Of a stretch of DNA of 64,000 nucleotides, positions 9,401 through 37,864 are shown in pieces. The notes under the pieces are model-generated. The model worked only from the letters and a program-made list of their open reading frames with translations. It had not been told where the DNA came from and did not search any database. The DNA is from OCS116 cluster bacterium AG-435-F03. Lineage in GTDB: Bacteria > Pseudomonadota > Alphaproteobacteria > MED-G09. Both the position numbers and the translations under genes were made by a program. The DNA is taken from NCBI GenBank assembly GCA_003212795.1, contig QCOV01000001.1, positions 624,893 through 688,892 on the forward strand. Reading direction: 5' to 3'. Each line of letters begins with the position of its first letter. Positions within the stretch are counted from its first letter, which is position 1.

Positions 9401-10162
9401 ATGGTTAGAAAAAAAAACAATAAAAATAAGAATTATACACCCTACTATATATGGGGATTACACGCTTCAATTGCTGCACTAAAAAACAACAAGAGGAATA
9501 TTGTAAATATTTTTTGTACTCAATTAGTTTTTGATAAACATATAAAAGAAAAAGTTAAATTCACTGACTCAATAAAAATAGTTAAAAATAATGATTTAAA
9601 TACACTTTTAGAAGATAAAATCACCCATCAAGGTATTATTATTGAAACAAAAACTTTAAATTATCCGAAATTGGATGATGTAATAGATAGCAGTAACATC
9701 ATAATAGCATTAGACCAAGTAACGGATCCACAAAATGTTGGAGCTATTATTAGAACTTTTAGCTTTTTTGGAGGAGAAAACCTATTAATTACTAAGGATC
9801 ATAGCTCAGAAATTAACGGGTCATTGGCAAAATCAGCTTCGGGAGCTTTAGAATCTGTAAATATAATCAAAGTAACAAATTTATCAATGACATTAAAAAA
9901 AATAAGAAAAAAAGGATTTATAATCATAGGTTTAGATGAAAATAGTAATGTAATGCTTCATAATATTAATGATTATAATAATGAAAAAAAAGTTCTAGTA
10001 ATGGGATCAGAAGGCAAAGGATTGAGAAGATTGACAAAAGAGAATTGTGACTTTTTAGTTTCAATTGCTAATAATAATGATAGTGATTTTAATACATTAA
10101 ATGTTAGTGTAAGTAGCGCTTTAGCGTTATATGAATTCATGGGGAGGGATATTATTAAATAA
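9401..10162 (+). CDS. SpoU/TrmH-family RNA 2'-O-methyltransferase (RlmB-like)
   Basis: 253 aa with SPOUT motifs (LDQVTDPQNVGAIIRT, VLVMGSEGKGL) and an N-terminal substrate-binding domain. Confidence 0.8.
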   Translation: MVRKKNNKNKNYTPYYIWGLHASIAALKNNKRNIVNIFCTQLVFDKHIKEKVKFTDSIKIVKNNDLNTLLEDKITHQGIIIETKTLNYPKLDDVIDSSNIIIALDQVTDPQNVGAIIRTFSFFGGENLLITKDHSSEINGSLAKSASGALESVNIIKVTNLSMTLKKIRKKGFIIIGLDENSNVMLHNINDYNNEKKVLVMGSEGKGLRRLTKENCDFLVSIANNNDSDFNTLNVSVSSALALYEFMGRDIIK

Positions 10163-11892
10163 TGGAACATATAACCTTACCAAATCTATTTTTTCAGAAG
10201 GCATTAGAAAACTCCGACAAGCCATTTTTATGGGCAAAAAAAGAAGGTGAATGGGAAAGTTTATCATGGCAAGAAACTGAAAAAAAGGTAAAACAATTAG
10301 CAGCAGGATTAAAATATAATGGTATTTTACCAGGTGATAAAGTTATTATTGTTTCTGAAAATAGACCTGAATGCCTAATTTCTGATTTAGCAATAAATAC
10401 TTTAAATGCGATAACTGTTCCAGCTTACACAACAAATACTGAAGATGATCATAGATATATAATTGAGCATTCTGATGCAAAAGCTGTAATAGTATCTAAT
10501 AATATTCTTGCTAATAGAATAGCTTTAGCTATAAGCAAAGTTGAATCATGTAACCTCTTAATAACAATCGATGAATATAGCGGTTTCATGCCCGAGAGCT
10601 TGAAAGTTGAAAGCTTTGAAAAATTGCTCAAAATCGGTGATGAAAATCTATCTACTGCCCTTCATAACCTTAACACCATAGATAAAGATGATATCTGTTG
10701 TTTAATTTATACTTCAGGCACAGGCGGTAGACCTAAAGGTGTAATGCTTACTCATAGATCAATTTATCATAATATTTTAGGCGCTGATAATTTAGTTAAA
10801 CAAGTTGGTGATATTGATCATACTTATTTATCACTTGTCCCCTATTCTCATGCTTATGAGCATATGGCAATATTTCTTCAGATCTATTTAGGTGCTCAAA
10901 TTTATTTTTCTGAGGGGCCAGATAAATTTGCTGCGAACCTGTTAGAGGTTGCCCCTACTTTATCAACAGCAGTTCCGAGACTTTTTGAGGTATTATATGA
11001 TAGAATAAGAATTCAAATTAAAAACTCCGGAAAGTTACTTCAATTTGCTTTCAATAGAACAATTAAACTTGGAAAAAAGAATCTATTTAATGAATTAAAT
11101 TTTATCGAAAAAATAGAACATAATACTTATTGTAAATTGATAAGAAATAGAATTACAAAAAGATTAGGAGGACGACTTTCTGCATTTATATCTGGTGGAT
11201 CTGCTCTAAATCCAGATATTGGTTATTTCTTTCTGTCATTAGGTGTTCAAATTATTCAGGGATATGGTCAAACTGAAGCCAGCCCTTTAATAAGTGCAAA
11301 CCCTCCAATAAAAGTTAAAATTGAAACAGTTGGCCCTCCAATAAAAGGAGTTGAGGTAAAATTATCTGAGGAAGGGGAATTGCTTGTAAAAGGTGAAGGA
11401 GTGATGAAAGGATATTGGAAACAGGAAAAAGAGACATCCGAAACAATTATCAATGGATGGCTTCATACTGGTGATTTGGCTGATATTGATGAAGATGGAT
11501 ATATAACTATAAAAGATAGAAAAAAAGAAATAATAGTTAATTCTGGGGGAGATAATATAGCGCCTGTACGTCCAGAAGCCAGCCTAACATTTCAAGACAT
11601 TATTCTACAGGCAATGGTTTCAGGTGATAGAAGACCTTATTTAGTAGCTCTAATTGTTGTAGATCCAGAAGTTTCAAAAAACATAAGTGAAGAAGAATTA
11701 AATAATGAAGTTTCTAATGCTGTAAAAAAGGCAAACGAAAATCTATCGCAAATAGAGAAAATAAAAAAATATATTATAATTGATGAGCCGCTTTCTACAG
11801 ATAATGGAATGTTAACACCAACCATGAAAATTAGACGTCATATGGTTAATGAAATGTATGGAGAACAACTTAACAACTTATATAAGAAATAA
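10162..11892 (+). CDS. AMP-dependent acyl-CoA synthetase/ligase (long-chain fatty-acid-CoA ligase-like)
   Basis: 576 aa with AMP-binding signature YTSGTGGRPKGVMLTH and a C-terminal domain ending TPTMKIRR. Start overlaps the upstream stop (taATGg). Confidence 0.88.
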   Translation: MEHITLPNLFFQKALENSDKPFLWAKKEGEWESLSWQETEKKVKQLAAGLKYNGILPGDKVIIVSENRPECLISDLAINTLNAITVPAYTTNTEDDHRYIIEHSDAKAVIVSNNILANRIALAISKVESCNLLITIDEYSGFMPESLKVESFEKLLKIGDENLSTALHNLNTIDKDDICCLIYTSGTGGRPKGVMLTHRSIYHNILGADNLVKQVGDIDHTYLSLVPYSHAYEHMAIFLQIYLGAQIYFSEGPDKFAANLLEVAPTLSTAVPRLFEVLYDRIRIQIKNSGKLLQFAFNRTIKLGKKNLFNELNFIEKIEHNTYCKLIRNRITKRLGGRLSAFISGGSALNPDIGYFFLSLGVQIIQGYGQTEASPLISANPPIKVKIETVGPPIKGVEVKLSEEGELLVKGEGVMKGYWKQEKETSETIINGWLHTGDLADIDEDGYITIKDRKKEIIVNSGGDNIAPVRPEASLTFQDIILQAMVSGDRRPYLVALIVVDPEVSKNISEEELNNEVSNAVKKANENLSQIEKIKKYIIIDEPLSTDNGMLTPTMKIRRHMVNEMYGEQLNNLYKK

Positions 11893-11960
11893 TTTTATAA
11901 AATTTTCAAATAAATTAAGTAAATGTTGACACCAAAGATTGATTAATTTTTAATTCAATT

Positions 11961-13334
11961 ATGCCACACGACAAAGTAAACGAAGATACAGCTAAATGCC
12001 CTATGTCTTTAGATGAAGTAGATCTATTTGAACCTGGGGCACAAAATTTTTGGTATGACTCATATAAAATTCTTCATAAAGAATCTCCAGTACATAAAAT
12101 TCCAGGTGAAGGGACATCTCCTGATACCGATGGTTTTATATTATCCAAATACGAAGATATTGCTTTTGTTGTAAAAGACATTCTAAGATTTCCTCCTCCT
12201 GTAATGAAAAATACAGACCTTGAGAAAGCTGGCGTTAGCGGTTTTAATGCAGAAAAAGATGATATGGATAAAGAAAAATTACCTGCAAGCAGTGTAGTAA
12301 GTAGACATGATCCAAGTCTCATGAATGCATTTCAAGTTTCAATACAAAGTTTAAGGCCTAATGAAGAATTATGGAAAGCACACAAAAGACAATTAACTGA
12401 TCCTTGGGTAGGGCCTGGGGCCTACAGACATGAAAAAATGGTAACCGAGGCAACAAATAAATTAATAGATAATTGGATAAACAAGGATAAATTTGACTTT
12501 GTATCTGAGTTTGCTATGCCCTTACCTCAAATAGTCATGGCAAACATTATAGGATTCCCACTTGAAGACATTCCGTTTCATAAAAAATGGGGTGACGCTA
12601 TGGTTATGCCTTTTGTTTATGGAAAAGGACACAGAAATCTTTTAACAAAAGATCAATCTGATGAGCAACAAGTGCTTTTAAAAGATTTTGGTAATTATGT
12701 AATTGATCAATTAGAAGAAAAGAAAAAGAATCCCAAAGAAGATATGTTATCTTTCTTGTTAGATGTTACCTATGAACCCTTTGATAGAAAACTTACAGAT
12801 ACGGAAATTATTGGCGTTGCATATGCAATGATAATTGGAGGATTGGAAACAACTCAATATGCAATTGCACATCAGGCTGTTATGTTGATAGATGATCCTG
12901 ATCTATATGTTGATTTAGATAAAAATCGGGAAAAAATAAACGCTTTTGTTGAGGAATCCTTGAGAGTCAAAGCACCTACCCAGGGTCTATCAACGCGAAT
13001 GACAACTCGAGATGAGGTTTTTCAAGGAGTTGAGGTTCCTAAGGGCTCGATACTTCATCTTCGATATGGTGCAGCAAATGTAGATCCTGATACATTTGAG
13101 TGCCCTCATGAAATCAACCTTAATAGAAAAGCCCTAACTAGACACCTAACCTTTTCTCAAGGACATAGAACATGTCCTGGAAATGGAATCTCTAGGCTAG
13201 AACAAAATATAGCGTGGAATTGTCTTATGGATAGAATTGAAAAGTTTGAATATACATCAGAAACAAAAATTGAATACCAACCTGGCATCATGTTAGGTAC
13301 ATTAGAATTACTTTTAAACTTTTCAAAGAAATAG
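11961..13334 (+). CDS. cytochrome P450
   Basis: 457 aa with the heme-thiolate loop FSQGHRTCPGNGISRLE (FxxGxRxCxG) and an ESLR-type K-helix. Confidence 0.9.
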   Translation: MPHDKVNEDTAKCPMSLDEVDLFEPGAQNFWYDSYKILHKESPVHKIPGEGTSPDTDGFILSKYEDIAFVVKDILRFPPPVMKNTDLEKAGVSGFNAEKDDMDKEKLPASSVVSRHDPSLMNAFQVSIQSLRPNEELWKAHKRQLTDPWVGPGAYRHEKMVTEATNKLIDNWINKDKFDFVSEFAMPLPQIVMANIIGFPLEDIPFHKKWGDAMVMPFVYGKGHRNLLTKDQSDEQQVLLKDFGNYVIDQLEEKKKNPKEDMLSFLLDVTYEPFDRKLTDTEIIGVAYAMIIGGLETTQYAIAHQAVMLIDDPDLYVDLDKNREKINAFVEESLRVKAPTQGLSTRMTTRDEVFQGVEVPKGSILHLRYGAANVDPDTFECPHEINLNRKALTRHLTFSQGHRTCPGNGISRLEQNIAWNCLMDRIEKFEYTSETKIEYQPGIMLGTLELLLNFSKK

Positions 13335-13404
13335 TTTTCTAATGAATGTTTAAGTTTACCTTTATAAGTGATTAGTGTATTTAAAATTTATTTTAAACCT
13401 GAAT

Positions 13405-13480
13405 GCCGACTTAGCTCAACTGGTAGAGCACCTGATTTGTAATCAGGGGGTTGGGGGTTCAAGTCCCTCAGTCGGCACCA
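13405..13480 (+). tRNA. tRNA-Thr (anticodon TGT)
   Basis: gccgact/agtcggc acceptor stem, anticodon loop TTTGTAA, T-loop ttcaagt, encoded CCA. Confidence 0.9.
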
Positions 13481-13722
13481 TTCATATAATAAGATGTTTA
13501 TTTTAATTGTATTAGTTTCTTTTTTAGTTTTTTATTTTATCTTTAGTTATCTCTATAAACTCCTTAATAAAAAACAAAATAAGTCAAACACCTTAGAAGC
13601 CATTGTTTTTTATTTATTCTTTTTTAGGTTAATTTCTGTTGCATTGATGGTAGGTTTTGTTCTTTATTGGATTGCTGGTGTATTTTAGTAATTGGTGAAA
13701 ATAAAATTAATGTAAAATAATT

Positions 13723-14661
13723 ATGAAAACATTTAAAAATAAAGTTGCTTTAATTACTGGTGCTGCATCTGGAATGGGAAGATATCTTGCGATTAATCTA
13801 GCAAAAGAAGGTGCTGATGTTGTTATTTGTGACGTGGATGAGTCTGGTTTAAAGGAGACAGAAACATTAATTAAAGCTTACAATGTAGGCTCTAGCTCTT
13901 TATTGCTGGATGTGAGAGATAAAAAAGAAGTTGAAGAACTTCCTACAAAAATAATAGAAAATCATGGAAAAATAGATTTAGTCTTTAACAATGCAGGAGT
14001 TGTCATACCTACTGGATTCCTAAATATGAATGAAGAGGACTGGAATTGGTGTAATGATATTAATTACAATAGCATAATAAACTTCTCTAGATCATTTTTA
14101 CCTCACCTTATGAAAGAAGAAAAAACAGCGTTAATAAATACCTCATCTATTTTTGGAATAATAACCACACCTAACAATACTGTTTATCATGCATCTAAAT
14201 TTGCAGTTAGGGGTTTCACAGAAAGCTTGGCCAAAGAAATGGAGGGCTCTAATACACAAATCCATTGTGTTTACCCTGGTCATATAGGAACAAATATAGC
14301 AGTGAACGCAAAATTTGGTGATCAGGTCGTAAAAGGTGAAAGCAAAGAAGGTATATTAGGTCTTAATGGAGAACCAGTAAAAGACATAAAAGGAAATCAA
14401 GTCTCAGAAAAAGAGGCCGGAATTAGGTTTCGAGATGCTGGAATGGATCCTGATAAAGCTGCACAGATAATTCTTAAAGGTATCAAAAAAAATAAGAAAA
14501 GAATTTTTGTTGGAATTGACGCAAAGTTAATGGAAATATCTCAGAGAATATTTCCTGATAGTTACTGGAGAATGATGCCTATTACACTTTTATTTGGCCT
14601 ACTCCTATCGCCACATAGACTAAAAAAGGCATTTCAATTGACTAGAAAGAAAAAAGATTAA
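13723..14661 (+). CDS. short-chain dehydrogenase/reductase (SDR)
   Basis: 312 aa with Rossmann motif TGAASGMGR, NNAG, YHASK catalytic pair and a long C-terminal tail. Confidence 0.85.
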   Translation: MKTFKNKVALITGAASGMGRYLAINLAKEGADVVICDVDESGLKETETLIKAYNVGSSSLLLDVRDKKEVEELPTKIIENHGKIDLVFNNAGVVIPTGFLNMNEEDWNWCNDINYNSIINFSRSFLPHLMKEEKTALINTSSIFGIITTPNNTVYHASKFAVRGFTESLAKEMEGSNTQIHCVYPGHIGTNIAVNAKFGDQVVKGESKEGILGLNGEPVKDIKGNQVSEKEAGIRFRDAGMDPDKAAQIILKGIKKNKKRIFVGIDAKLMEISQRIFPDSYWRMMPITLLFGLLLSPHRLKKAFQLTRKKKD

Positions 14662-15644
14662 GCGTTAGCGTAGCTTTTTAATCGTTGATTAATTATTTCA
14701 TCAGCTTCTTGCATGATTGTATCAATCAGCTCTTTGCATGTTGGTACATCATGAATTAAACCAGCAACCATTCCACAGCTCCAAGCAGCAGCCTCAAGAT
14801 CACCATCTCTTAATACTCTCTCCGAACCAGCTACCAGAGGTCTAATTTCCTCAAGTAAAGCATTAGGGTCATTATTATCTTTATGATTAGCTTCAATTTC
14901 CATAATTTCATCAACTGCTTTGTTAACAAGAACTCTTTCTGTATTTCTCAGAGGCCTCATAACTAATCGTGTCTCTAGCTCGGATGCCTCAACTAAACGT
15001 TGTTTTACATTATCATGAACAGGTGCCTCTTTAGTGGCAATAAATCTTGTGCCCATATTCATTCCTTCAGCCCCAAAAGCTAGAGCTGAAACAAGACTTC
15101 TTGCGTTAGCCATTCCACCAGATGCAACAAAAGGTATTTTTAATTCTTCAGCTGCTCTTGGCAGAAGGATGCCATTAGGCACATCATCTTCACCAGGGTG
15201 TCCACCGCATTCAAAACCATCCACGCTAACAGCATCACATCCTATAGCTTCAGCTTTCAATGAATGTCTTACGGAAGTACATTTATGAATTACTTTAATA
15301 TCTGCTTCCTTTAGTTGGGGCATATATTTTTCAGGATTACGTCCTGCTGTTTCAACTATTTTAATTCCACCTTGAATAATTGCATCTATATACTCATCAT
15401 AAGGAGGGTCTTTAAATGACGGAATAAATGTAAGATTTACTCCAAATGGTTTATCGGTCATATCGTGACATTTTGCTATTTCATTCGCTAAATCTTTTGG
15501 AGTTGGTTGGGTTAGTGCAGTAATAATTCCTAGTCCCCCAGCATTAGAAACTGCAGCAACTAACTCTGAAAATCCTACAAAATGCATACCACCCTGAATA
15601 ATTGGATGCTCAATATTAAATAGTTCTGTAATTCTGGTTTTCAT
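14658..15644 (-). CDS. nitronate monooxygenase (NMO)/FabK-like FMN-dependent oxidoreductase
   Basis: 328 aa TIM-barrel FMN protein with the NMO-family N-terminus (ITELFNIEHPIIQGGMHFVGFSELVAAVSNAGGLGII). Confidence 0.8.
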   Translation of the reverse strand: MKTRITELFNIEHPIIQGGMHFVGFSELVAAVSNAGGLGIITALTQPTPKDLANEIAKCHDMTDKPFGVNLTFIPSFKDPPYDEYIDAIIQGGIKIVETAGRNPEKYMPQLKEADIKVIHKCTSVRHSLKAEAIGCDAVSVDGFECGGHPGEDDVPNGILLPRAAEELKIPFVASGGMANARSLVSALAFGAEGMNMGTRFIATKEAPVHDNVKQRLVEASELETRLVMRPLRNTERVLVNKAVDEIMEIEANHKDNNDPNALLEEIRPLVAGSERVLRDGDLEAAAWSCGMVAGLIHDVPTCKELIDTIMQEADEIINQRLKSYANA

Positions 15645-15659
15645 TTTGTCCTCACAATA

Positions 15660-16856
15660 TTAGAATAATGACGGTAGTTTACTATCTTCAGTATTTATAA
15701 TTTTATCTACCCATTTGTGGAAAACTTGGCCACCACCCTCATTCCTACCAAACATAACATGGTCAATTAGACCTGTTTTTAAGCTTTTTTGTAATCTAAG
15801 ACCTGTTCCATAGTCTTCAGTTTCAACAACATATTTTAGAAGATCAAATTGTTTATGAGCTTCTTCAGCTTGTTTTTCATTCGGTTCTTTTTCCATTAAA
15901 TAAAATTGATTTGTTACTGATTCTTCAGGTCTATCTCCAGGCAATAACTGTGAAAGCATTATGCTACGCCCACCTCCATTAAAAGAAGCTATTGAAACAT
16001 GAGGAAAAATTGTCCAAACACCAGCCATTAAAACATCCAAGGGCCATTCTTCTACAGAATTTTCATAATGATCTTTTCCGTCATTATTAAAATCATTTTG
16101 TTCAGGCAGTCTATAGGGCGATATAGCTCTTTGATGGGGACCCCATTCATAGTAATTAGCTTGATTTGAGAAACTATCTCCAAAAGTATCTTTATGTAAA
16201 ACAGGGAGATGGTAAAGGTCTAAATAACCATCATATGCTACCTTCCAATTTGGACCATTCACTGATCTAGTTTCAAAAACATGCCAATTTTCTAGTCCAA
16301 AAAGAGATAACATTTTATCATATCCAGAAAGGTAGTCTTGAATATTTAAATTTGATTTAGGATCTAATGTAACCCAAATAATTCCTTCTTTCTCAAGTGA
16401 TGGTAAGGAAATCAATCCATTGCATGATTTATCTATTTCTCCAAATTCATGGGCAGATGCAACGCCCATAAGAGCGCCTTCATCATTATATGTCCAACCA
16501 TGATAAGGGCAAGAAAAGCGTTTCTGATTTCCTGTTCCCGGCTCAACTAAAGCAGCACCTCTATGTCGACATGCATTAAGAAATGCAGAAATTTTACCTT
16601 TTTTATTTCTTAAAATAATTACAGGTACACCAACAACTTCCATGGCCTTATAATCTCCAGGATTTGGAATTTCACTTGTCACGGAAAGAACTAGAGGTAA
16701 TCTTTTGAAAATTAGATCAACTTCTTTTTTCCATCTTACTGGATCATAATAATTCTCTGCTGGAATCTTAACTACATCATCAACAAGAGTCATCGTGCCT
16801 TTTTCAGCATGATCTTTGTTAATTCGGGCCATTTCAAATAATTTTTCTTTACTCAT
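15660..16856 (-). CDS. Rieske [2Fe-2S] non-heme iron oxygenase, alpha-subunit-only type (KshA/GbcA-like)
   Basis: 398 aa with Rieske motif CRHRG...CPYHGW and mononuclear iron motif NWKVAYDGYLDLYHLPVLH. No beta subunit gene follows. Confidence 0.88.
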   Translation of the reverse strand: MSKEKLFEMARINKDHAEKGTMTLVDDVVKIPAENYYDPVRWKKEVDLIFKRLPLVLSVTSEIPNPGDYKAMEVVGVPVIILRNKKGKISAFLNACRHRGAALVEPGTGNQKRFSCPYHGWTYNDEGALMGVASAHEFGEIDKSCNGLISLPSLEKEGIIWVTLDPKSNLNIQDYLSGYDKMLSLFGLENWHVFETRSVNGPNWKVAYDGYLDLYHLPVLHKDTFGDSFSNQANYYEWGPHQRAISPYRLPEQNDFNNDGKDHYENSVEEWPLDVLMAGVWTIFPHVSIASFNGGGRSIMLSQLLPGDRPEESVTNQFYLMEKEPNEKQAEEAHKQFDLLKYVVETEDYGTGLRLQKSLKTGLIDHVMFGRNEGGGQVFHKWVDKIINTEDSKLPSLF

Positions 16857-21367: not shown

Positions 21368-21519
21368 AATTTATCAAAGCATATTAAACAAAAGCTTAAA
21401 AGATTTATTTAGTATAAATTTGCATAATAATAATTATAAAAAAAACTTTTATAAAACTTTCAATATTGCAAGAAATATTATGCATGCTATTCTGTTTTTG
21501 GTTTTAATGAGGCTTTTAA

Positions 21520-26877: not shown

Positions 26878-26979
26878 AATTACCCCCCCAATTGATTTAA
26901 ATATTATGATAGTTGAATAAATGTTTTTTTTCAATAAATTAACAAATTAATGATTTAAATTTTAAGTTAATTAAATATC

Positions 26980-29175: not shown

Positions 29176-31480
29176 TATTTATAATCCCCCATACTTTTTG
29201 TGCTGTAATTGGCATATTTAGTTTCTTTGTATCAAAACCCTCTAAAGCATTTATGATTGCATTTACATAAGCAGTTGTTGAGGCAACAGTTCCAGCTTCA
29301 CCACAACCTTTAGCTCCCAATAAATTTGTTTTACACTCTGCCTCTTCATTAAAATCAATATTAAAATCAGGAAAATCATCAGCTCTTGGCATTTGATAAT
29401 CCATATAAGAACCATTTAAAAGTTGGCCAGTTTCCTCTTCATATATAGCATGTTCACACATTGCTTGACCTAAACCCTGAACGATACCTCCATGAACTTG
29501 GCCCGCAACTAAAAGAGGATTAATAATTTTTCCAAAATCGTCTGTCGCATGATAATCTATGATATCTATATTTCCTGTATCTTTATCTACCTCTACCTCA
29601 CAAATGTGGCAACCATTTGGATATGTCGGATCTTTATGTTCGTATGAACTAGCACCATCAAGCATTTGAGTATTAGATTGATTTTCTGCAATTTTAGCTA
29701 TTGAAAATAAGTCAATATTTCTGTTAGTGCCTTGTACTTGAAAAAGAGGACCAGATTCAGTTGAATACTCTATTTCGTCTATAGAAGCCTCTAATTCTGC
29801 AGCAGCAATTTCAATTCCCTTTTTCAAAACATCATCTGATGCCTCATTAATGGCACCAGCAGCAAAATACAACGATTTTGATCCACCAGTTCCACCTCCG
29901 CTTGGCAAGTCTTCACTATCACCAAAATGAATAGATACATCTTCAGGGTTAACACCTAATTTTTCAACAACAATTTGTGTCCATGCAGTCTCATGGCCTT
30001 GGCCTGTAGCCATTGTGCCGGTGTAAACATTTACCTTACCCTCACTTGAAACAATTATTCTAGAGTCTTCAGAGCCCTCTCCTTGAGTTCTCTCAACATA
30101 ATATGATACACCGATACCGCGAAGTTTATTTTCATCTATAGATTTTTTTTGTCTTTTTTCGAAATCTTCAAAAGATGAATTTAGCAGTGTCATGTTAGTA
30201 GTTTTATTAAAATCACAACTATCAAAAGGAATAACCGGGTCTGCAGTATTTCCTAAATCAGAAGGTTGAACATAATTCAATTTTCTAATTTCTATTTGTC
30301 CAAGAGACATATCGCGGGCTGCTTGATCAACCAATCTCTCAATAACATAACTTGCTTCAGGTCTACCCGCTCCTCTATAAGCATCAATAGGAACAGTATT
30401 TGTATATACAACTTTTACATTATTAACCATTACAGGAATATTATATACTCCAACATGCATTCCCGCAGCTGCAAGAGTAGGAATAAAAATACCATATTGG
30501 GATAAATAAGCTCCTACAGAAGCTGTTGTCTCCACCTTTACACCAAGAAATTTTCCTTCTTTATCTAAAGCTAAATATGCATCGGTGACATGGTCTCTAC
30601 CTTGTGCATCACTTAAAAAAGACTCTGATCTTGTTGCAGTCCATTTAACAGGTCTTGATAAAATTTTACTAGCATGCATTACAGCTATATATTCAGGAAA
30701 ACACATCATTTTTAAGCCAAATCCACCGCCTACATCTTTTGTAATAACTTGAATATCTTCTTCTTTAATATTAAGCGTATTAGCAAGCCTTTCTCTCATA
30801 GCATGAGGGCCTTGGCTTTCAACATGCATTTTAAATTTTCCATCAGTTTTATTAAATATTGATACTGCAGATCTTGGTTCGATAGGATTAACGACAATCC
30901 TATTATTAATAAGATGAACATGAGAAACATGATGTGCATCTGACTCAACTTTTTTCCATTCCTCATCCGAACCTAAACCCCAATCAACTGCACAATTAGA
31001 CTCAAATTCATCAAATAACTTAGGTGAGTCATTTTCAAGAGCTTTGGCGGTGTCAGAGTTACATGGTAACTCTTCATAATCCACTATTACATTATCAGCA
31101 GCATCGAGAGCTAAATTAACAGTTTCAGCTAGTATGAAAACAACAGGATCTCCGACATGTCTTACCCTATCTGACGCCAATATAGGTCTTTTACTAGCAT
31201 TCATAGGTGATCCATCTTTATTTTGGAGAAAATCAATTACCGACATATGTGTTATACCTGCCTCAGTGAAGGAATCATTTGTAAAAATATCAATTACACC
31301 TGGCATTTTACGAGCACTCTCAACATCAATGTTTAAAATTTTTGCATGAGAATAAGGTGATCTAACAAAAACACCATGGCACATATCTTCAAATTTTATA
31401 TCATCCGTATAATTACCTTCTCCTGTAATTAAACGCGTATCTTCAATCCTAGTAACAGGCTGTCCTACAGCAAACTTCAT
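29168..31480 (-). CDS. xanthine dehydrogenase/aldehyde oxidase/CoxL-family molybdopterin-binding large subunit
   Basis: 770 aa. N-terminus MKFAVGQPVTRIEDTRLITGEGNYTDDI...HGVFVRSPYSHAKI is characteristic of Mo-hydroxylase large subunits, and the Mo-cofactor-binding domains are present throughout. Confidence 0.88.
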   Translation of the reverse strand: MKFAVGQPVTRIEDTRLITGEGNYTDDIKFEDMCHGVFVRSPYSHAKILNIDVESARKMPGVIDIFTNDSFTEAGITHMSVIDFLQNKDGSPMNASKRPILASDRVRHVGDPVVFILAETVNLALDAADNVIVDYEELPCNSDTAKALENDSPKLFDEFESNCAVDWGLGSDEEWKKVESDAHHVSHVHLINNRIVVNPIEPRSAVSIFNKTDGKFKMHVESQGPHAMRERLANTLNIKEEDIQVITKDVGGGFGLKMMCFPEYIAVMHASKILSRPVKWTATRSESFLSDAQGRDHVTDAYLALDKEGKFLGVKVETTASVGAYLSQYGIFIPTLAAAGMHVGVYNIPVMVNNVKVVYTNTVPIDAYRGAGRPEASYVIERLVDQAARDMSLGQIEIRKLNYVQPSDLGNTADPVIPFDSCDFNKTTNMTLLNSSFEDFEKRQKKSIDENKLRGIGVSYYVERTQGEGSEDSRIIVSSEGKVNVYTGTMATGQGHETAWTQIVVEKLGVNPEDVSIHFGDSEDLPSGGGTGGSKSLYFAAGAINEASDDVLKKGIEIAAAELEASIDEIEYSTESGPLFQVQGTNRNIDLFSIAKIAENQSNTQMLDGASSYEHKDPTYPNGCHICEVEVDKDTGNIDIIDYHATDDFGKIINPLLVAGQVHGGIVQGLGQAMCEHAIYEEETGQLLNGSYMDYQMPRADDFPDFNIDFNEEAECKTNLLGAKGCGEAGTVASTTAYVNAIINALEGFDTKKLNMPITAQKVWGIINNA

Positions 31481-31492: not shown

Positions 31493-32248
31493 TTAATTTT
31501 TATAACTGGGGTCAATTTTATCTAATTTCCTTAAAAGACCAGGCCACGCAAGTTGGCCTATTCCATCATCAGATGCCATTTGACCTTGTTCAGTAACTAA
31601 TTCAATAACATCAGTTGGAACTTGATTAAGTTTTAAACCACCAGTTAAGGCTTTAATTTGCATGGTGCAGGCTCTTTCAAGAAAAAATAAACGAAGCCAT
31701 GCATCTCCACAAGTAGCACCTGTTGTTAACAAACCATGATTTTTTAAAATTAAACAATGCTTATCCCCAAGATCATTAATCAATCTCTCTCTTTCATCTA
31801 AATTAAGAGCGATACCTTCATAATCATGATATGCACAATCATTTCTTATAACCATTGCATGTTGACTTATAGGCATAAGACCATCTTCTTGTGCCGCAAC
31901 AGCCACTCCATCATTTGAATGCGTATGAATTACAGCATGATTATTTGTTCCTGAGGAATGAACTGCTGAATGAATAGTGAAACCAGCAGCATTAACATTA
32001 TAATTTGTTTCAGAAACCTTATTTCCATCAAGATCAATTTTGACCAGATCAGATGCACAAATTTCGTCAAATAATAAACCATATGGATTAAGTAAGAAGT
32101 GTTCAGGTTCTGAGGGAACACGAACAGATATATGGGTAAAAACAAGATCATCCCAACCATATAAAGCTACTAACCTATATAAAGCTGCAAGCTCTACTCT
32201 TGCGCTCCATTCCTCTTCACTTACTGATTCTCTAATTTGTTTATTCAT
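31493..32248 (-). CDS. class II aldolase/adducin-domain protein
   Basis: 251 aa with metal-binding His cluster (HTHSNDGVAVAAQ...HAMVIRND). Size and pattern fit the FucA/AraD fold. Confidence 0.65.
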   Translation of the reverse strand: MNKQIRESVSEEEWSARVELAALYRLVALYGWDDLVFTHISVRVPSEPEHFLLNPYGLLFDEICASDLVKIDLDGNKVSETNYNVNAAGFTIHSAVHSSGTNNHAVIHTHSNDGVAVAAQEDGLMPISQHAMVIRNDCAYHDYEGIALNLDERERLINDLGDKHCLILKNHGLLTTGATCGDAWLRLFFLERACTMQIKALTGGLKLNQVPTDVIELVTEQGQMASDDGIGQLAWPGLLRKLDKIDPSYKN

Positions 32249-32295
32249 AATCCAATATTACAATCTTTATAAATATAAAACCAGCATTATTAGAA

Positions 32296-33771
32296 TTAGA
32301 CATTGATGATTTTATTTATTGCTTTATTCCAATTTTTTATTATTTCTTCTCTTGTTTGATTTTCCATTTGTGGCAGAAATTCCTTATTTTTATATAAATT
32401 AACATTAAATTCTTTTAAATCATTAATTTCTTGAGAGCCAAGAGCTGATAATGAAGCCGCGCCCAATGCAGTCGCTTCTTGTTCATTTGATTTACTTATT
32501 TTTATGTCACAAATATCAGAGAGATTCTGCATAAACCAGTCATTTTCTGTCATACCTCCATCAACTCTGATACTATTAAGGGGGTTCTCAAATAATTTTT
32601 TAGTATCCTCATTTATGGCATTCATAAGATCATACGTTTGTAAAGAAATAGACTGAACTGATGAGGCTATTATCTCATTTTTGTTGGAATCACGCGTTAA
32701 ACCTGAAATAGTTGCCCGACTATTTGGTTGCCAATGTGGTGCACCTAAACCAGTAAAAGCAGGTACCATTACAATCTCACTATTAATGGAAGTATTTTTA
32801 AGTATATCTTCTAATTCATTAATATTATCAAATACTTGTAGATTATTCTTTAACCAATCTATAATAGCACCAGCCATGAAAATAGAACCCTCAAGAGCAT
32901 AAGCTATCTCTCCATTAATTTTATATGCTACGGTCGATAAAAGGCCATTTTTAGAATATGCAATATTTTTACCTGTATTTAATAAAACAAAGCATCCAGT
33001 ACCATAAGTTGACTTAATATCTCCAAAATTAAAGCATTTTTGTCCAATTGCAGCTGATTGTTGATCTCCTATAACACCATAAATTGGTAATTTCTTTATG
33101 AGAGCCTCTGATTGTCCATAAAAAGCATCAGATTCCAGAACTTCCGGAAGTATTGATTTATTCACTTGAAAAAGATTCAATAAATCATCATCCCATTTTA
33201 ATTCTTCAATATTAAAAAGATTTGTTCTAGCTGCATTTGTAATATCAGTAGCAAAAACTTTACCTTTTGTAAGATGCCAAATAATCCATGAATCTATTGT
33301 TCCTGCACATACTCTATCTTGATTTATGCTTTCTTTAACGCCATCAACATTATTTATTATCCAGGATATCTTAGTTGATGAAAAATACGGGTCTAATAAT
33401 AATCCTGTTTTATTGATAATTAATTCTTCGTAGCCTTTTTCTTTTAAATCTCTACATAAACTCTCTGTTCTTCTGTCTTGCCATACTATTGCGTTATATA
33501 AAGATTTACCGGTTTGTTTATCCCATACAACTACAGTTTCTCTTTGATTAGTAATACCAATTGAACAAATATTATGATTAGGATTATTTTCTATAATTTC
33601 ATTACAACAACTTATAACAGTTCCAATAATCTCTTCGGGATTATGCTCAACCCAACCATTATTAGGGAATACTTGTTCAAAAGATTTCTGACTAGAATCA
33701 ACTTTTTTTCCGTTTAAGTCAAAAAGCATTACTTTTGTAGATGTGGTACCTTGGTCAATTATAAGAAACAT
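32296..33771 (-). CDS. glpK: glycerol kinase (FGGY family)
   Basis: 491 aa colinear with GlpK over its whole length (IIDQGTTSTKVMLFD, GITNQRETVVVWDKQTGKSLYNAIVWQDRRT, TYGTGCF, PAFTGLGAPHW, VDGGMT). Confidence 0.88.
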   Translation of the reverse strand: MFLIIDQGTTSTKVMLFDLNGKKVDSSQKSFEQVFPNNGWVEHNPEEIIGTVISCCNEIIENNPNHNICSIGITNQRETVVVWDKQTGKSLYNAIVWQDRRTESLCRDLKEKGYEELIINKTGLLLDPYFSSTKISWIINNVDGVKESINQDRVCAGTIDSWIIWHLTKGKVFATDITNAARTNLFNIEELKWDDDLLNLFQVNKSILPEVLESDAFYGQSEALIKKLPIYGVIGDQQSAAIGQKCFNFGDIKSTYGTGCFVLLNTGKNIAYSKNGLLSTVAYKINGEIAYALEGSIFMAGAIIDWLKNNLQVFDNINELEDILKNTSINSEIVMVPAFTGLGAPHWQPNSRATISGLTRDSNKNEIIASSVQSISLQTYDLMNAINEDTKKLFENPLNSIRVDGGMTENDWFMQNLSDICDIKISKSNEQEATALGAASLSALGSQEINDLKEFNVNLYKNKEFLPQMENQTREEIIKNWNKAINKIINV

Positions 33772-33773
33772 TT

Positions 33774-34940
33774 TTATTTATGAGAAACAGGAAGTTTTTT
33801 TCTACCCCAAAAAAGAAAGGGGCCTACCCTTTCGCCATCATTAATTAATTTTAAATTAGGAAATCTCTTTTTTAATGCATTAAGAGTAACCTTTGTCTCT
33901 AACCTTGCAAGCTCTCTACCTAAGCAAATGTGAACACCTACACTAAAAGAAATTACTTTACTACCATCTCTAGTCAAATCGAATGTATTTGGATTATCAA
34001 AAATTACAGGATCTCTATTTGCTGCACCATAATGCATCATCACTTTTGAGTTTTTTGGAATTATATTTCCTTCAATATTTACTTCTTTAGAAGTAGTTTT
34101 AAATAATCCTAAAAGAGGTGGATCGTAGCGTAGACTCTCATTTATAGCATTATTGATATCAATTTTATTGCTTACAAAATCTTCCCATAAATTATCTACA
34201 GTCATCATTCTCCATACTAAATTAGAAATCAAAGAAGTAGTTGTCTCATTACCTGCAACAAAAATTTGTATAGTTAAGTTTACAGCTTCATCATTAGATA
34301 AATATTTTGACTTAAGTTTTGCATGAGCAATCCTTGATAAAAGAGTGCTATCTTCTTCTTCTTCTCTTTTTTTTAGTATGAGATCCAATAGATAATCTCT
34401 CATTTGACTCAATTCTTTTTCAAATTTCTGGGGGTCTTCACTACACATTTGTTCCACCGTAGCATCTGCCCAACGCTTAAATTTATGAATGTCATCAATT
34501 GGAATACCTAATATCTCGCAAATAATTATTACTGGTAGTGGAAATGATAAGTTATCATGAATATCCCAAATATCTTTTCCCATAACATCATCAAGGAGTT
34601 CCTCTGCGATTTCTTCTAATCTCTCTTCTAATTTAGCAATTGATCCCATTAAAAAATTCGGTTGTACAATTCTTCTAATCAATGTGTGATGCTCTCCGTC
34701 AGAAAGCACACCATTAGAAGAATCTATAAAGTTAGGTCCATTACCATGACCCTCAATGAAAATATCAGGCTCTCTTAAGGCATAACTAATATCTTCATAT
34801 CTTGATAGTATGTAAAATGGAGGGTCGTACAAATCATAATGGTAGACTCTATTTCCATTTAATAATTTTGAAGCGGATATAGATGGGTCATACATCTCAT
34901 CCTGACTCATTAAATTAACCTTACTGTTGTCTGAATTCAT
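33774..34940 (-). CDS. cytochrome P450
   Basis: 388 aa with heme loop FSVGVHICLGRELARLE and an ETLR-type K-helix (NESLR). Confidence 0.85.
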   Translation of the reverse strand: MNSDNSKVNLMSQDEMYDPSISASKLLNGNRVYHYDLYDPPFYILSRYEDISYALREPDIFIEGHGNGPNFIDSSNGVLSDGEHHTLIRRIVQPNFLMGSIAKLEERLEEIAEELLDDVMGKDIWDIHDNLSFPLPVIIICEILGIPIDDIHKFKRWADATVEQMCSEDPQKFEKELSQMRDYLLDLILKKREEEEDSTLLSRIAHAKLKSKYLSNDEAVNLTIQIFVAGNETTTSLISNLVWRMMTVDNLWEDFVSNKIDINNAINESLRYDPPLLGLFKTTSKEVNIEGNIIPKNSKVMMHYGAANRDPVIFDNPNTFDLTRDGSKVISFSVGVHICLGRELARLETKVTLNALKKRFPNLKLINDGERVGPFLFWGRKKLPVSHK

Positions 34941-35026
34941 TTATTCACCTAAATAGATAAAAACCAAAGATAAAACTTTAGTAATTTAGGTATGAATTAT
35001 CAAGAGGAAGTGATATTTAAAAAAAT

Positions 35027-35794
35027 ATGTCAGATAAAAAAATACATTTTGTTTCAAGTGATAATAAAGCTGCGAAAGAAGCGAAAGATAATCTAGTAAA
35101 AAAATATAAGGATTATTCTGCCCCTGAAGCTGATGTAATTGTTGCGCTTGGAGGTGATGGACTTATGTTACAAACGCTTCATGATAATATTGATGAGGCA
35201 AAGCCTATTTTTGGCATCAATAAAGGGTCTGTTGGTTTCTTAATGAACGATTATAATGATGACGATCTGTTAGAAAGAATTGAATCTGCTACTTTAACAA
35301 AAGTTTACCCTCTTCAAATGACAGTTAAAACTGAGCAGGAAGAAATATCAGCAAAAGCTATTAATGAAGTTTCTCTTTTGAGACAAACATATCAAGCAGC
35401 AAAAATAAAAATTAAGATAGATGATAAAATTCGATTAGAAGAATTAATATGTGATGGTATTTTACTTGCAACACCTGCAGGTAGTACCGCCTATAATTTA
35501 TCTGCTCATGGACCAATACTTCCAATTACTTCAAATTTATTAGCATTAACTCCTATATCAGCATTTAGACCAAGACGATGGAAAGGCGCACTGCTACCTC
35601 ATGATTCAATAGTTGAAATTGAAATATTGGAAAAAAATAAGAGACCGGTAAGTGCTGTTGCAGACAATCTTGAAATAAGAGACATAGAAAGCGTTAAAAT
35701 AATAGAGGATAGAAAAACGGAATTATTTATGCTTTTTGATCCTGAAACAAATCTAGAAGAAAAGATTTTAGAAGAACAATTTACTTACTCTTAA
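35027..35794 (+). CDS. nadK: NAD+ kinase
   Basis: 255 aa with GGDGLML, NEV and [17 protein letters not shown] motifs. Confidence 0.9.
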
Positions 35795-35795
35795 T

Positions 35796-36587
35796 TTATT
35801 TTAAATTCTCTATAGGCTCTTTAATTAGACCATATCCAGCTTTTTCAGGAATCGTCAAAAATACTCCGTCCTCATTCTTTTCTATCTTAGGTTCAACGGT
35901 GATAACTGTCTCTTTTTTAACTTCCTCAAGGGCTTCTGAAACAGTTCTAAATTTGGATAATTTTTCTAAATTCATTCTTGTAGGAAAAATTATAGTTCGT
36001 TTTTCAGCTATACAGTCCTCTAATGCCTGTTTTGGAGAAATCCAAATTGAATCAACAGACTCTTTTCCATCATGCTTGCCTATATGATCTTTAGGGGCTT
36101 CGGCAAGATAAAAATATGTATCAAACCTCTTTGGCATCATTTTTGGGGTTATCCAATGCGCAAATGGAATTAAATTGTCTAAATTAAATTTAATGTTTTC
36201 CTTAACAGCAAAATCAAACATTGATCCCTTTTTGTTATTAAATTTTTCTCGCCACTGAGCCAATTTCTTCAATTTTCCACTTGATATAATTTCTTTCTCA
36301 TTTTGCTCGTATGCAAATAATACATCTGCTTCTTCATAACACTCTCTTATTCCTGCAATTTTATAACTTAGCTCTTCATCACTAATTTCTTTTTCAGTAA
36401 CTACATGTCTTCTCAATTCTGGATTAAGATCACTTTCATCAACTTTTCCACCTGGAAAGACTAAAGCACCTGATGCAAAATCTATTTGGTGATGCCTAAC
36501 AACCATAAAGACTTCTATATCATCAACACCGTCTCTAATAACTAAGACAGTAGATGCAGGTATTAATTTATTAGAAGAATTTTCCAT
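35796..36587 (-). CDS. NUDIX hydrolase (CoA pyrophosphatase NudL-like)
   Basis: 263 aa with Nudix box VFPGGKVDESD...GIRECYEEADVLF. Confidence 0.75.
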   Translation of the reverse strand: MENSSNKLIPASTVLVIRDGVDDIEVFMVVRHHQIDFASGALVFPGGKVDESDLNPELRRHVVTEKEISDEELSYKIAGIRECYEEADVLFAYEQNEKEIISSGKLKKLAQWREKFNNKKGSMFDFAVKENIKFNLDNLIPFAHWITPKMMPKRFDTYFYLAEAPKDHIGKHDGKESVDSIWISPKQALEDCIAEKRTIIFPTRMNLEKLSKFRTVSEALEEVKKETVITVEPKIEKNEDGVFLTIPEKAGYGLIKEPIENLK

Positions 36588-36649
36588 AATATAATGCTAT
36601 AGCATAGTTCAAAATATTTAATCATTTATTTTTATTATGATGAGGAGAG

Positions 36650-37864
36650 ATGATGTTAGAAGGATTAAGAGTTATTGAGATGTCAACATATGTAGCCGCT
36701 CCTGGAGCAGGTGGTATGCTTCGAGATTGGGGAGCAGAAGTTATTAAAGTTGAACCATTAACAGGCTGTCCAATGAGATCATTTTTTGAAGGAACAAAAT
36801 CAAAATTAGAAATAGTAGGTAACCCTATCTTTAGTCTCGATAATAGAGGCAAAAAAGGGATGACAATAAATACTAGCAATGAAAAAGGTGCTGATATTGT
36901 TAGACAATTAATTAAAGATGCAGATATCTTTTTGACAAATGTTAGACCTACATCATTAGAAAAATCAAAACTTGATCATGAAACGCTTCTAGAAATTAAT
37001 CCTAAGCTAATATATTGCTCTTTATCAGGTTACGGTCTTGACGGGGAAGAAAGAGATCGACCTGGTTTTGATATTGCTGCATTTTGGTCAAGATCCGGAA
37101 TGGCACATTTAACCCAGAGAAAAGGTGAAGAGCCCTTGCCTATTAGAGTTGCTGTTGGAGATCATATAACCTCAATATCAACAGTTAGTGGAATATTAGC
37201 TGCAGTTTATGAAAGACAAAAAACAGGTAAAGGTAAAGTTGTTGAGAGTTCACTCTTAAGAACAGGAATTTATTCCATAGGCTCAGATATGGCACTTCAA
37301 TTAAGGTTTGGTCGGGTTCCATCAACAAAAAAAAGAGATGAACAAATAAACCCAATAGCTAATTTTTTTAAAACAAAAGATGATAGATGGATATGCCTTA
37401 GTCCAAGAGCAGGAGGCGATTGGGATTTGCCTCAAGTAGCAAGAGCTATCGGGAGAGAAGAATGGTTGGAAGATGAGAGATTTAATAATCATCATGGAAG
37501 AAGGTCTAACTCTACAGAATTTGTAAAAGCTATGGATGAAGCTTTTAGTCAATTAACTCTTGAAGAATGGGGTGAAAGATTAGACAAAGAAGATCTAATT
37601 TGGGCGCCTGTACAAAATTTAAGCGAAGTTGCAAATGACAAACAAGCTATTGAAGCAGGATCATTTGTTGAAATTGAAGACCCAGAATGTGAAGAGAAGT
37701 ACCTATCTTTAGCTTCTCCGGTTAAATTCCATAATAGTGATGTAGGTCCAAAAGGACCTGCACCTCTTCTTGGTGAACATAATAAAGAAATATTAAGTGA
37801 GATGGGCTATTCATCAGAAGAAATTAGTAAATTTGAAGAAAATGGAATTATTGGGAAAAGTTAA
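36650..37864 (+). CDS. CoA-transferase family III (CaiB/BaiF/Frc-like)
   Basis: 404 aa with the family N-terminus [34 protein letters not shown] and catalytic Asp region. Confidence 0.88.

Follow-up and report, generated by a model that had tools for sequence, protein, structure and literature searches.

The locus

The subject of this analysis is a block of oxidative and lipid-type catabolic genes in a 64-kb window, the whole stretch of DNA that was analysed, from the OCS116 cluster bacterium AG-435-F03. The block lies at positions 9401 to 37864, between a cluster of tuf and tRNA genes and the gene thrS. An earlier note on this DNA had described a 28-kb stretch dominated by oxygenases at these positions. 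The stretch is real, and its edges agree exactly with the open reading frame (ORF) calls, from the start of rlmB at 9401 to the end of a CoA-transferase gene at 37864. All ORFs of the block were scanned against Pfam, and most also against NCBIfam and the Protein Data Bank (PDB). The catabolic and uptake genes are the following.

10162 to 11892, plus strand: long-chain-type acyl-CoA synthetase (FadD-like); AMP-binding and AMP-binding_C_3 domains; best NCBIfam matches FadD11 and long-chain ligases, all below cutoff.
11961 to 13334, plus strand: cytochrome P450 "a" (P450a), unassigned family; PF00067; generic PDB matches of at most 132 bits; Cys-ligand motif FSQGHRTCPG.
13723 to 14661, plus strand: SDR1, a short-chain dehydrogenase/reductase (SDR) of 312 aa; adh_short, 166 bits; catalytic YxxxK present.
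14658 to 15644, minus strand: flavoprotein of the nitronate monooxygenase (NMO) family; PF03060, 197 bits; PDB 2gjl/6e2a, 370 bits, with P. aeruginosa PA1024 the closest solved relative.
15660 to 16856, minus strand: Rieske non-haem-iron oxygenase, alpha subunit only; Rieske and Ring_hydroxyl_A domains; CxH...CxxH and DxxHx4H motifs.
16905 to 17684, minus strand: SDR2, FabG-like; adh_short_C2, 221 bits; generic NCBIfam matches.
17777 to 18919, minus strand: Fe-dependent alcohol dehydrogenase (Fe-ADH); Fe-ADH and ADH_Fe_C domains; best NCBIfam matches 4-hydroxybutyrate dehydrogenase and lactaldehyde reductase, below cutoff.
18920 to 19840, minus strand: esterase/lipase of the hormone-sensitive lipase (HSL) family, Abhydrolase_3; PF07859, 168 bits; GESAG-type HSL, 202 bits, below cutoff; HGGG and GDSAG motifs.
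19857 to 20588, minus strand: SDR3; adh_short_C2, 164 bits.
20588 to 21367, minus strand: SDR4; adh_short_C2, 154 bits; 75-100% conserved.
21520 to 23127, plus strand: type I Baeyer-Villiger monooxygenase (BVMO); 430-440 bits to phenylacetone and cyclohexanone monooxygenases (PAMO, CHMO).
24166 to 24618, minus strand: SRPBCC (Bet v1/START-like) protein, putatively lipid-binding; Polyketide_cyc2, 29 bits; adjoins the TonB-dependent receptor gene, in the related locus L089 too.
24649 to 26934, minus strand: TonB-dependent outer-membrane receptor (TBDR); plug and barrel domains; homologues of 742-745 aa.
26980 to 27429, minus strand: second SRPBCC-like protein, a paralogue of that at 24166 to 24618 (52% identity, E = 7e-54); no direct Pfam match.
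27435 to 27911, minus strand: HpaC/StyB-type NAD(P)H:flavin reductase; Flavin_Reduct, 92 bits; FerA, StyB and HsaB-like matches below cutoff.
27916 to 29175, minus strand: P450 "b" (P450b), CYP153A-type (alkane or omega-hydroxylase family); full-length matches to PDB 7ant (610 bits), 6hqg (599 bits) and 3rwl, CYP153A7 (596 bits).
29168 to 31480, minus strand: Mo-hydroxylase large subunit, form II CoxL type; Ald_Xan_dh_C and MoCoBD_1/2; glyceraldehyde dehydrogenase alpha, 579 bits, below cutoff.
33774 to 34940, minus strand: P450 "c" (P450c), CYP107-like; PF00067; generic PDB matches of about 166 bits; missing in the deepest PS1 lineages (L017-L019).
36650 to 37864, plus strand: family III CoA-transferase; PF02515, 336 bits; best PDB match succinate-hydroxymethylglutarate CoA-transferase, 152 bits.

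The earlier note had rightly named the three P450s, the BVMO, the Rieske, NMO-family and Fe-ADH proteins, the esterase, FadD, the CoA-transferase, a Nudix protein, the TBDR, the Mo-hydroxylase, glycerol kinase (GlpK) and an aldolase. It counted six SDRs where there are four. It also left out RlmB, NAD kinase (NADK), an APH-family kinase, the two SRPBCC paralogues, the flavin reductase and a 64-aa membrane peptide. Housekeeping genes inside the block are rlmB, the NAD kinase gene and tRNA-Thr(UGU).

The genes form eight strand runs with seven switches, not the three co-directional blocks first described. The longest runs are one on the plus strand and two on the minus strand, of 7 and 10 genes, and gaps within runs range from -8 to 92 nt. 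This layout shows at least seven transcription units. One long minus-strand operon reads P450c-GlpK-aldolase-CoxL-like-CYP153A-flavin reductase-SRPBCC-TBDR-SRPBCC-APH. The other reads SDR4-SDR3-esterase-FeADH-SDR2-Rieske-NMO, and the BVMO gene is transcribed divergently from it.

No integrase, transposase or helix-turn-helix (HTH) regulator domain was found by Pfam in any ORF of the block, which bears out the earlier note, and no intergenic gap is roomy enough to hide one. HTH regulators, integrases and transposases are likewise absent from the whole window, where the only transcription-related factors are NusG and DksA (62171 to 62638). Being "regulator-free" is therefore a trait of the genome and not distinctive of the block. 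This absence fits a regulator-poor, streamlined genome. An Rfam scan of 7-41 kb returned tRNAs only, with no riboswitch or small RNA, and an uninformative promoter and terminator scan of 9-29 kb gave fewer matches than shuffled sequence.

Conservation in the PS1 clade

On sequence evidence the window belongs to a PS1-clade alphaproteobacterium (Parvibaculales; genus AG-430-B22 or very near). Its closest relatives by thrS, at 74-95% identity, are genomes labelled "PS1 clade", "Rhodobiaceae" and "OCS116 cluster AG-430-B22". The earlier note had pointed to Pelagibacterales, HIMB59 and AEGEAN-169 as kin, but thrS of Pelagibacteraceae is only about 52% identical. The exact thrS was found in many marine metagenomes and in the single amplified genome (SAG) GCA_902559135.1.

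Dense catabolic clusters beside tRNA genes in streamlined genomes call for a synteny check before they are labelled islands. Synteny was assessed by tblastn of all window proteins against fetched loci of relatives (L numbers), with one genome per GTDB species scanned. The thrS-proximal 10 kb has the order thrS-CoAT3-Nudix-NADK-(P450c)-GlpK-aldolase-CoxL-like-CYP153, CoAT3 being the family III CoA-transferase gene, in 10 of the 10 PS1 species representatives that reach far enough. The loci L087/L088 keep the entire stretch from CoAT3 to SDR1 in the same order, with a TBDR 77% identical; they lack only the genes for the APH kinase and the second SRPBCC protein. From tuf to the BVMO gene, the order is kept in L095, L101, L102, L105-L110 and L113/L114. 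In relatives down to 57% SDR1 identity, the left and middle part reads tuf-tRNAs-rlmB-FadD-P450a-tRNA-Thr-SDR1-NMO-Rieske-SDR2-FeADH-esterase-SDR3-SDR4-...-BVMO.

The block has also diverged at the same pace as core genes. Mean identities, which are approximate hand averages of tblastn identities, are about 81% for the block and about 79% for the core in L013, 73% and 72% in L018, and 67% and 71% in L095. Composition is uniform as well. Block and flanks cannot be told apart by GC content at third codon positions (GC3; 0.187 against 0.184, Mann-Whitney p = 0.92), and each 4-kb bin correlates at 0.96-0.99 with the tetranucleotide profile of the window as a whole. A search of 8.5-40.5 kb gave no significant flanking repeats at the block boundaries; the pairs it did return are short, AT-rich and due to chance. 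Proteins of the block recur exactly on as many public contigs as thrS does (108): 153 for the Rieske protein, 79 for the BVMO, 328 for CYP153 and 160 for GlpK.

The same order in all examined relatives, the core-like divergence, the uniform composition and the lack of mobility genes and repeats indicate that the block is core and not an island. The best explanation is thus a vertically inherited, lineage-conserved catabolic neighbourhood of the PS1-clade core chromosome. Its probability is put at roughly 0.6, a single figure for core status and the mechanism proposed below taken jointly.

The earlier note had instead suggested a flexible genomic island, horizontally acquired at tRNA genes and present in some strains only. 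This suggestion can hardly be right. The tRNA genes at the left border, and one inside the block, do speak for it. However, the synteny comparison, which the note itself had named as a way to refute the idea, finds the block at the same locus in all ten species representatives with enough flank, and all PS1 relatives inspected carry the genes unchanged in order between tuf and thrS. Its divergence equals that of core genes, its composition is that of the flanks, and no integrase, transposase or flanking repeat was found. Presence/absence polymorphism, atypical composition, mobility genes and att repeats were all looked for as signs of a flexible island, and the block has none of them.

Conservation has its limits further afield. 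In a more distant family, with thrS 53-54% identical, only the thrS-NADK adjacency persists and is followed by unrelated catabolic genes, so the content of the interval turns over on a timescale of families and not of strains.

One local rearrangement was seen at thrS. In L010:10001-11908 and L012:1-1788, the gene alone is inverted relative to the CoA-transferase gene and cysS (compare window 37861-39777). Both loci are SAG-derived, from the AG-343-O05 and AG-430-B22 representatives, and the inversion is either real or an assembly artefact.

The tRNA-Thr insertion site

The tRNA gene inside the block, which the earlier note had placed in its middle, lies 4 kb from the left edge. Two small features stand here.

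13405 to 13480, plus strand: tRNA-Thr(UGU), found by ARAGORN and Rfam.
13494 to 13688, plus strand: conserved membrane peptide of 64 aa, for which two hydrophobic segments are predicted; the ORF is intact in 10 loci, where identity is 55-100%.

In relatives, the 3' end of this tRNA is a strain-variable insertion site; in the window the site is empty. Inserts were found in L096, L097, L099, L101, L102 and L122, and their break points all fall at window 13480-13493. The insert coordinates are L099:97-6741, L097:5089-12949, L101:7342-9778, L102:575-2331, L122:79-2415 and L096:11509-13325. The distance from tRNA-Thr to SDR1 is 242 nt in the window, L098 and L106, and 13 nt in deeper lineages. In L101, L102 and L122 it is 2.0-2.7 kb, with an Amidohydro_3 gene or a 704-aa protein without known function. 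In L099, where SDR1 is 96% identical, it reaches 6.9 kb and includes a PLD-SNF2 helicase and a Type ISP/IIG restriction-methyltransferase, a defence pair. Cargo of 7.9 kb follows the tRNA in L097, namely an APS-kinase-like gene, a BCCT transporter, a sulfotransferase and a TBDR. An amidohydrolase gene occupies the site in L096. The L096 and L097 contigs end before SDR1.

The insert boundaries carry a 16-nt direct repeat of the tRNA 3' end in L099 and a 75-nt second tRNA copy in L097. No integrase was seen in any insert, and within the window the tRNA-Thr 3' end occurs just once. The site is of the classic hypervariable kind linked to a tRNA, has no relation to the oxygenase genes and is the only place in the region that varies between strains. 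The earlier note, which took the tRNA as a sign of an island, was thus right that integration happens here. What integrates in relatives is 2-8 kb of unrelated cargo between tRNA-Thr and SDR1, not the 28-kb block.

Flexible islands and hypervariable regions linked to tRNA genes are known in marine bacterioplankton such as Prochlorococcus, SAR11 and Alteromonas. The likeness to them consists in strain-specific cargo and repeats of the tRNA end at the tRNA-Thr(UGU) of PS1 relatives. The difference is that what varies here is not the block but a site at 13.48 kb, which measures 0-8 kb and has no insert in the window. The position of tRNA-Thr(UGU) near tRNA-Tyr, tRNA-Gly and tuf recalls the thrU-tyrU-glyT-thrT-tufB arrangement, which we take to be widespread. 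By this analogy, it fits an ancestral tRNA better than an island marker.

The C-terminal half of the 64-aa peptide is nearly invariant, and the peptide has no Pfam match. It is absent from the deeper PS1 lineages in which tRNA-Thr sits 13 nt from SDR1. An additional tRNA-Thr(GGU) was seen at L097:404-477, beside tRNA-Gly and upstream of rlmB. The window lacks it, and its tuf and tRNA-Gly are only 42 nt apart.

The CYP153A gene and its neighbours

By convention, P450s share a family at 40% identity or more to named members and a subfamily at 55% or more. P450b is roughly two-thirds identical to solved CYP153A structures (printed alignment, by inspection), which lies above both thresholds. The motifs of CYP153 are both present, the I-helix LLLIVGGNDTTRN in the form GGNDTTRN and the Cys-ligand (haem) loop YGFGIHRCVGNRLA in the form YGFGIHRCVG. 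Its sequence thus marks P450b as a CYP153A-type alkane hydroxylase by family.

The components of the block are of known kinds; the context of the CYP153 gene is unusual. In the canonical CYP153 operons of Acinetobacter, Alcanivorax, Mycobacterium, Dietzia and Sphingopyxis, CYP153 is preceded by ferredoxin reductase and followed by ferredoxin, and an AraC-type regulator usually accompanies them. The likeness to these operons is the P450 itself, with its full-length alignment and shared I-helix and haem-loop signatures. Unlike them, P450b has no ferredoxin, ferredoxin reductase, AraC or other regulator nearby. Its neighbours are instead the form II CoxL-like Mo-hydroxylase, whose gene lies upstream and is overlapped by 8 nt, the HpaC-type flavin reductase, whose gene comes next, the SRPBCC proteins and the TBDR.

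The Mo-hydroxylase scores 310-379 bits against CoxL-type structures in the PDB. Its active-site motif is AYRGAGR (form II) and not the AYxCSFR of form I, and all CO dehydrogenase models score below cutoff, so a true CO dehydrogenase was rejected. The lone large subunit is conserved at 73-97% identity across PS1 species.

In deep PS1 lineages (L018:17898-19139; also L017 and L019), a luciferase-like monooxygenase gene lies between the CoxL-like gene and CYP153, and P450c is missing. The lineage of the window retains a flavin reductase that matches such a monooxygenase, the monooxygenase itself having been lost or moved. Homologues of P450a, at 71-80% identity, hold the same position in relatives. 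FadD and P450a were also considered as a conserved pair outside PS1, and they are not, since P450a homologues in other phyla are unlinked to FadD.

The Baeyer-Villiger monooxygenase and the dehydrogenases

Type I BVMOs are recognised by the fingerprints FxGxxxHxxxW[P/D] and [A/G]GxWxxxx[F/Y]P[G/M]xxxD and by a Rossmann motif for FAD. The BVMO of the block carries FNGPCFHSSRWP, GGTWAWNRYPGAATD and GAGFAG. With SDRs, an alpha/beta hydrolase and Fe-ADH it forms a set that resembles known pathways. The chn and cpn pathways (cyclohexanol and cyclopentanol) and the subterminal-alkane and ketone pathways use an SDR alcohol dehydrogenase, a type I BVMO, an ester or lactone hydrolase, a hydroxy-acid dehydrogenase and an aldehyde dehydrogenase. 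The likeness lies in the presence of these SDRs, BVMO, hydrolase and Fe-ADH in one neighbourhood. The block differs in having no gene of the aldehyde dehydrogenase (ALDH) family and no ChnR/CpnR-type regulator, in the HSL/Abhydrolase_3 type of its hydrolase, and in joining the set with a TBDR, three P450s and a Rieske oxygenase. NCBIfam searches of block proteins gave no equivalog-level match to any chn or cpn enzyme. By analogy, the set may act as these chn/cpn and subterminal-alkane enzymes do, yet it cannot be shown to belong to either pathway.

The intergenic region between the divergent SDR4 and BVMO genes holds a 31-nt element, TATCAAAGCATATTAAACAAAAGCTTAAAAG, at 21372 to 21402, which occurs once in the window. 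Lying upstream of the SDR4 operon, it is conserved in L101, L102, L121 and L087 while its flanks diverge, a hint of a promoter or of an operator at which a distant factor acts. The true start of SDR4 is probably 15 nt downstream, at 21352, where a GGAGG ribosome-binding site precedes it; its homologues are annotated with 254 aa. A motif scan of SDR4 gave no classical YxxxK catalytic motif, despite its strong adh_short_C2 match.

The Rieske protein has distant PDB matches of at most 94 bits, carnitine monooxygenase among them. KshA and CntA were both rejected as identities for it, there being no KshA match at E < 1e-10 and only a distant match to CntA. The NMO-family protein is 91-100% identical in closer relatives.

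The TonB-dependent receptor and its sub-module

The TBDR gene probably starts at 26877, which would give a predicted signal peptide ending in ...SFAQS. Of the two SRPBCC genes around it, that at 26980 to 27429 is variable, being absent from L087/L088. Its product, a 149-aa hypothetical protein (hyp149), was considered as a hidden regulator and rejected as such on account of its SRPBCC paralogy.

Homologues of the receptor in three other lineages always stand beside alcohol or aldehyde dehydrogenase and acyl-CoA genes. An example is the unrelated locus L089 (GCA_022447065.1, labelled SAR86; 10001-16377), where the sub-module TBDR-SRPBCC-SDR-SDR-esterase is collinear at 50-75% identity. In L089, the place of the BVMO is taken by a luciferase-like monooxygenase and that of Fe-ADH by a pyrroloquinoline quinone-dependent alcohol dehydrogenase (PQQ-ADH). 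This copy, in a genome labelled as another class, could reflect old horizontal transfer, a shared ancestral module or mis-binning. In L091 and L157, the receptor homologues are linked to genes for PQQ-ADH, ALDH, SDR, acyl-CoA synthetase, acyl-CoA dehydrogenase and thiolase. TBDR homologues of 46-68% identity bear SAR86, Porticoccaceae or Halieaceae labels. Two of the homologues, P0077 and P0080, were followed as a route to the block in a deep lineage; they are other loci in other organisms and serve as functional context only.

In SAR86, lipid and oxidative catabolism linked to TonB receptors has been inferred, and SAR202 has expanded oxygenase paralogues. The PS1 block is like these in that streamlined oligotrophs pair TonB-dependent receptors with BVMO or flavin monooxygenases, SDRs and acyl-CoA enzymes. 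It differs in being one fixed syntenic unit by tuf and thrS, in an alphaproteobacterial lineage, and in including CYP153A.

A proposed route of oxidation

From these genes we infer that aliphatic or alicyclic compounds, supplied through a TonB system, are oxidised both terminally and subterminally. The TBDR and the SRPBCC carriers would take in an aliphatic or alicyclic substrate of low solubility, for example an alkane, alkanol, ketone or ester. In a terminal route, CYP153A would hydroxylate the end of the chain, Fe-ADH and SDRs would oxidise the alcohol, and the aldehyde may be a substrate of the Mo-hydroxylase. The acid would then be activated by FadD or the CoA-transferase for beta-oxidation, the enzymes of which would be encoded elsewhere in the genome. 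In a subterminal or ring route, SDRs would turn secondary alcohols into ketones, the BVMO would turn ketones into esters or lactones, and the HSL-type esterase would cleave these. Constitutive expression, or control from elsewhere, is probable, and the same would hold for the rest of this genome with its few regulators. The earlier note's idea of an uptake-and-oxidation system for a hydrophobic substrate thus stays plausible, and it is sharpened by the CYP153A assignment, the BVMO fingerprints and the TBDR neighbourhoods; the substrate itself is one that we infer.

A more specific target was also considered. The block might be a sterol, steroid or isoprenoid-lipid degradation cluster acting on a polycyclic or branched phytoplankton lipid. 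The BVMO scores 406 bits to steroid monooxygenase, the esterase also matches the Say1 steryl acetyl hydrolase family, and the flavin reductase matches HsaB at 90 bits. Likewise, CYP153 appears in the PDB list as a sister family of CYP124/125, and SRPBCC proteins are START-like lipid binders. Yet these "steroid" matches are far below family cutoffs and no better than those to non-steroid enzymes. All hallmark genes are lacking from the block, which has no KstD, KshA-type, HsaA/C/D, ChsE/ChsH or thiolase genes; among its ORFs, Pfam detected none of the steroid catabolic set of KshA-type Rieske protein, KstD, HsaA-D and side-chain acyl-CoA dehydrogenase, hydratase and thiolase. The Rieske protein, for its part, falls outside KshA as described above. 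A steroid cluster is accordingly judged improbable.

Several points weigh against the proposed oxidation of aliphatics by a conserved core block. The synteny rests on fragmentary contigs from metagenome-assembled genomes, SAGs and metagenomes. Beyond CYP153A and the BVMO, enzyme assignments are at the level of broad families, and the Rieske protein, P450a, P450c, the APH kinase, the aldolase and the Nudix protein have no assignable substrate. The block has no ALDH-family aldehyde dehydrogenase, acyl-CoA dehydrogenase or thiolase. The window encodes no redox partners for the three P450s and the Rieske oxygenase; no Fer2/Fer4 or FAD/NAD reductase gene was found in the block or the rest of the 64 kb. 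Genes for the small (2Fe-2S) and medium (FAD) subunits of the Mo-hydroxylase are likewise missing from the window, and we know of no established substrate for form II CoxL proteins. TonB-dependent uptake of alkanes is, to our knowledge, not an established mechanism. Finally, GlpK, the aldolase, NADK, the Nudix protein and rlmB do not suit a hydrocarbon pathway, so the block may consist of several unrelated units.

This last point leads to a serious rival, in which the block is a syntenic patchwork without a single pathway. Independent small operons for glycerol use, NAD and CoA housekeeping, several unrelated oxygenases and a receptor would have stayed adjacent since PS1 genomes are compact and rarely rearranged. 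The eight strand runs and the housekeeping genes within the block agree with this. So does the gain or loss of P450c, APH, the second SRPBCC and the luciferase-like monooxygenase between lineages, with the rest undisturbed. The missing link between P450a and FadD in other phyla points the same way, as do the quite different catabolic genes that fill the space beyond thrS-NADK in the distant family. On the other side stand the very tight packing, with translational overlaps such as that of the CoxL-like and CYP153 genes at -8 nt, and the collinear recurrence of TBDR-SRPBCC-SDR-SDR-esterase at an unrelated locus. The enzymes moreover form chemically consecutive steps (hydroxylase, dehydrogenase, BVMO, esterase and CoA ligase). 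The patchwork is regarded as possible but doubtful, and a conserved neighbourhood for oxidation of aliphatics is preferred.

Role in the ocean

PS1/AG-430-B22 is abundant and transcriptionally very active in the open ocean, and its diet is little known. No paper was found that describes this cluster in PS1, nor any that connects the clade with CYP153; the PS1/Parvibaculales literature found consists of community surveys only. In metatranscriptomes from the Gulf of Mexico, AG-430-B22 is the strongest alphaproteobacterial expresser of "fmo", in transcripts not tied to this locus (PMC13488336). At the deep chlorophyll maximum it contributes about 2% of transcripts and expresses TonB receptors abundantly, and it is one of the heterotrophs to which a synchronised transcript set, coxL-type transcripts included, is ascribed; these observations are not tied to this locus (PMC13096325). 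These field data are consistent with a system in active use.

The conserved combination of CYP153A, BVMO and esterase, dehydrogenases and a TonB receptor suggests a PS1 niche that includes aliphatics, either oxidised already or open to oxidation. Candidates are alkanes, ketones, esters and possibly alicyclic dissolved organic matter. The block gives concrete and testable targets for work on the marine hydrocarbon cycle.

A bolder version, rather unlikely as it stands, is that PS1/AG-430-B22, which ranks with the transcriptionally most active heterotrophs of the deep chlorophyll maximum, runs this fixed, regulator-less block as constitutive TonB-fed oxidation of cyanobacterial alkanes and alkyl lipids. 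CYP153A would then receive its electrons through the HpaC-type flavin reductase or the form II CoxL-like Mo-enzyme, and not through ferredoxin and ferredoxin reductase. If this non-canonical electron supply and the cyanobacterial alkanes were both true, the short-term hydrocarbon cycle of the ocean would have in PS1 a sink so far overlooked, and a role would be found for form II CoxL proteins.

Other genes of the block and its flanks

The remaining genes of the block are these.

9401 to 10162, plus strand: rlmB, 23S rRNA 2'-O-methyltransferase, housekeeping; SpoU_methylase and SpoU_sub_bind; TIGR00186 RlmB, 167.7 bits against a cutoff of 160.
23135 to 24163, minus strand: APH-family small-molecule kinase; PF01636, 118 bits; variable, absent from L087/L088.
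31493 to 32248, minus strand: class II aldolase/adducin-family protein; PF00596, 156 bits; NF005451, 371 bits against a cutoff of 207.
32296 to 33771, minus strand: glycerol kinase GlpK; TIGR01311, 620 bits against a cutoff of 590.
35027 to 35794, plus strand: NAD kinase, housekeeping; NF003406, 388 bits against a cutoff of 211.
35796 to 36587, minus strand: Nudix hydrolase of an uncharacterised subfamily; weak Pfam NUDIX match; PDB 3qsj, E = 8e-12; Nudix core RECYEE in the translation.

The stop of rlmB and the start of FadD overlap by 1 nt, and rlmB adjoins the tRNA-Tyr/Gly-tuf cluster in all relatives. The NAD kinase gene adjoins thrS even beyond the close PS1 group (L050, L052). The CoA-transferase was also considered as an alpha-methylacyl-CoA racemase, which was ruled out since the racemase scores only 83 bits, below CoA-transferases proper. 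Its gene and thrS overlap at their ends by 4 nt.

GC content is flat across the 64-kb window, at about 0.32. The left flank, up to 9200, reads rpoB-rplL-rplJ-rplA-rplK-nusG-(secE)-tRNA-Trp-tuf-tRNA-Gly-tRNA-Tyr. The right flank holds thrS, yidD, a NifU-like gene, cysS, folE and hisI, and its other housekeeping genes are cysE, purB, purC, purQ, purL, rpsD, icd, alaS, recA and dksA.

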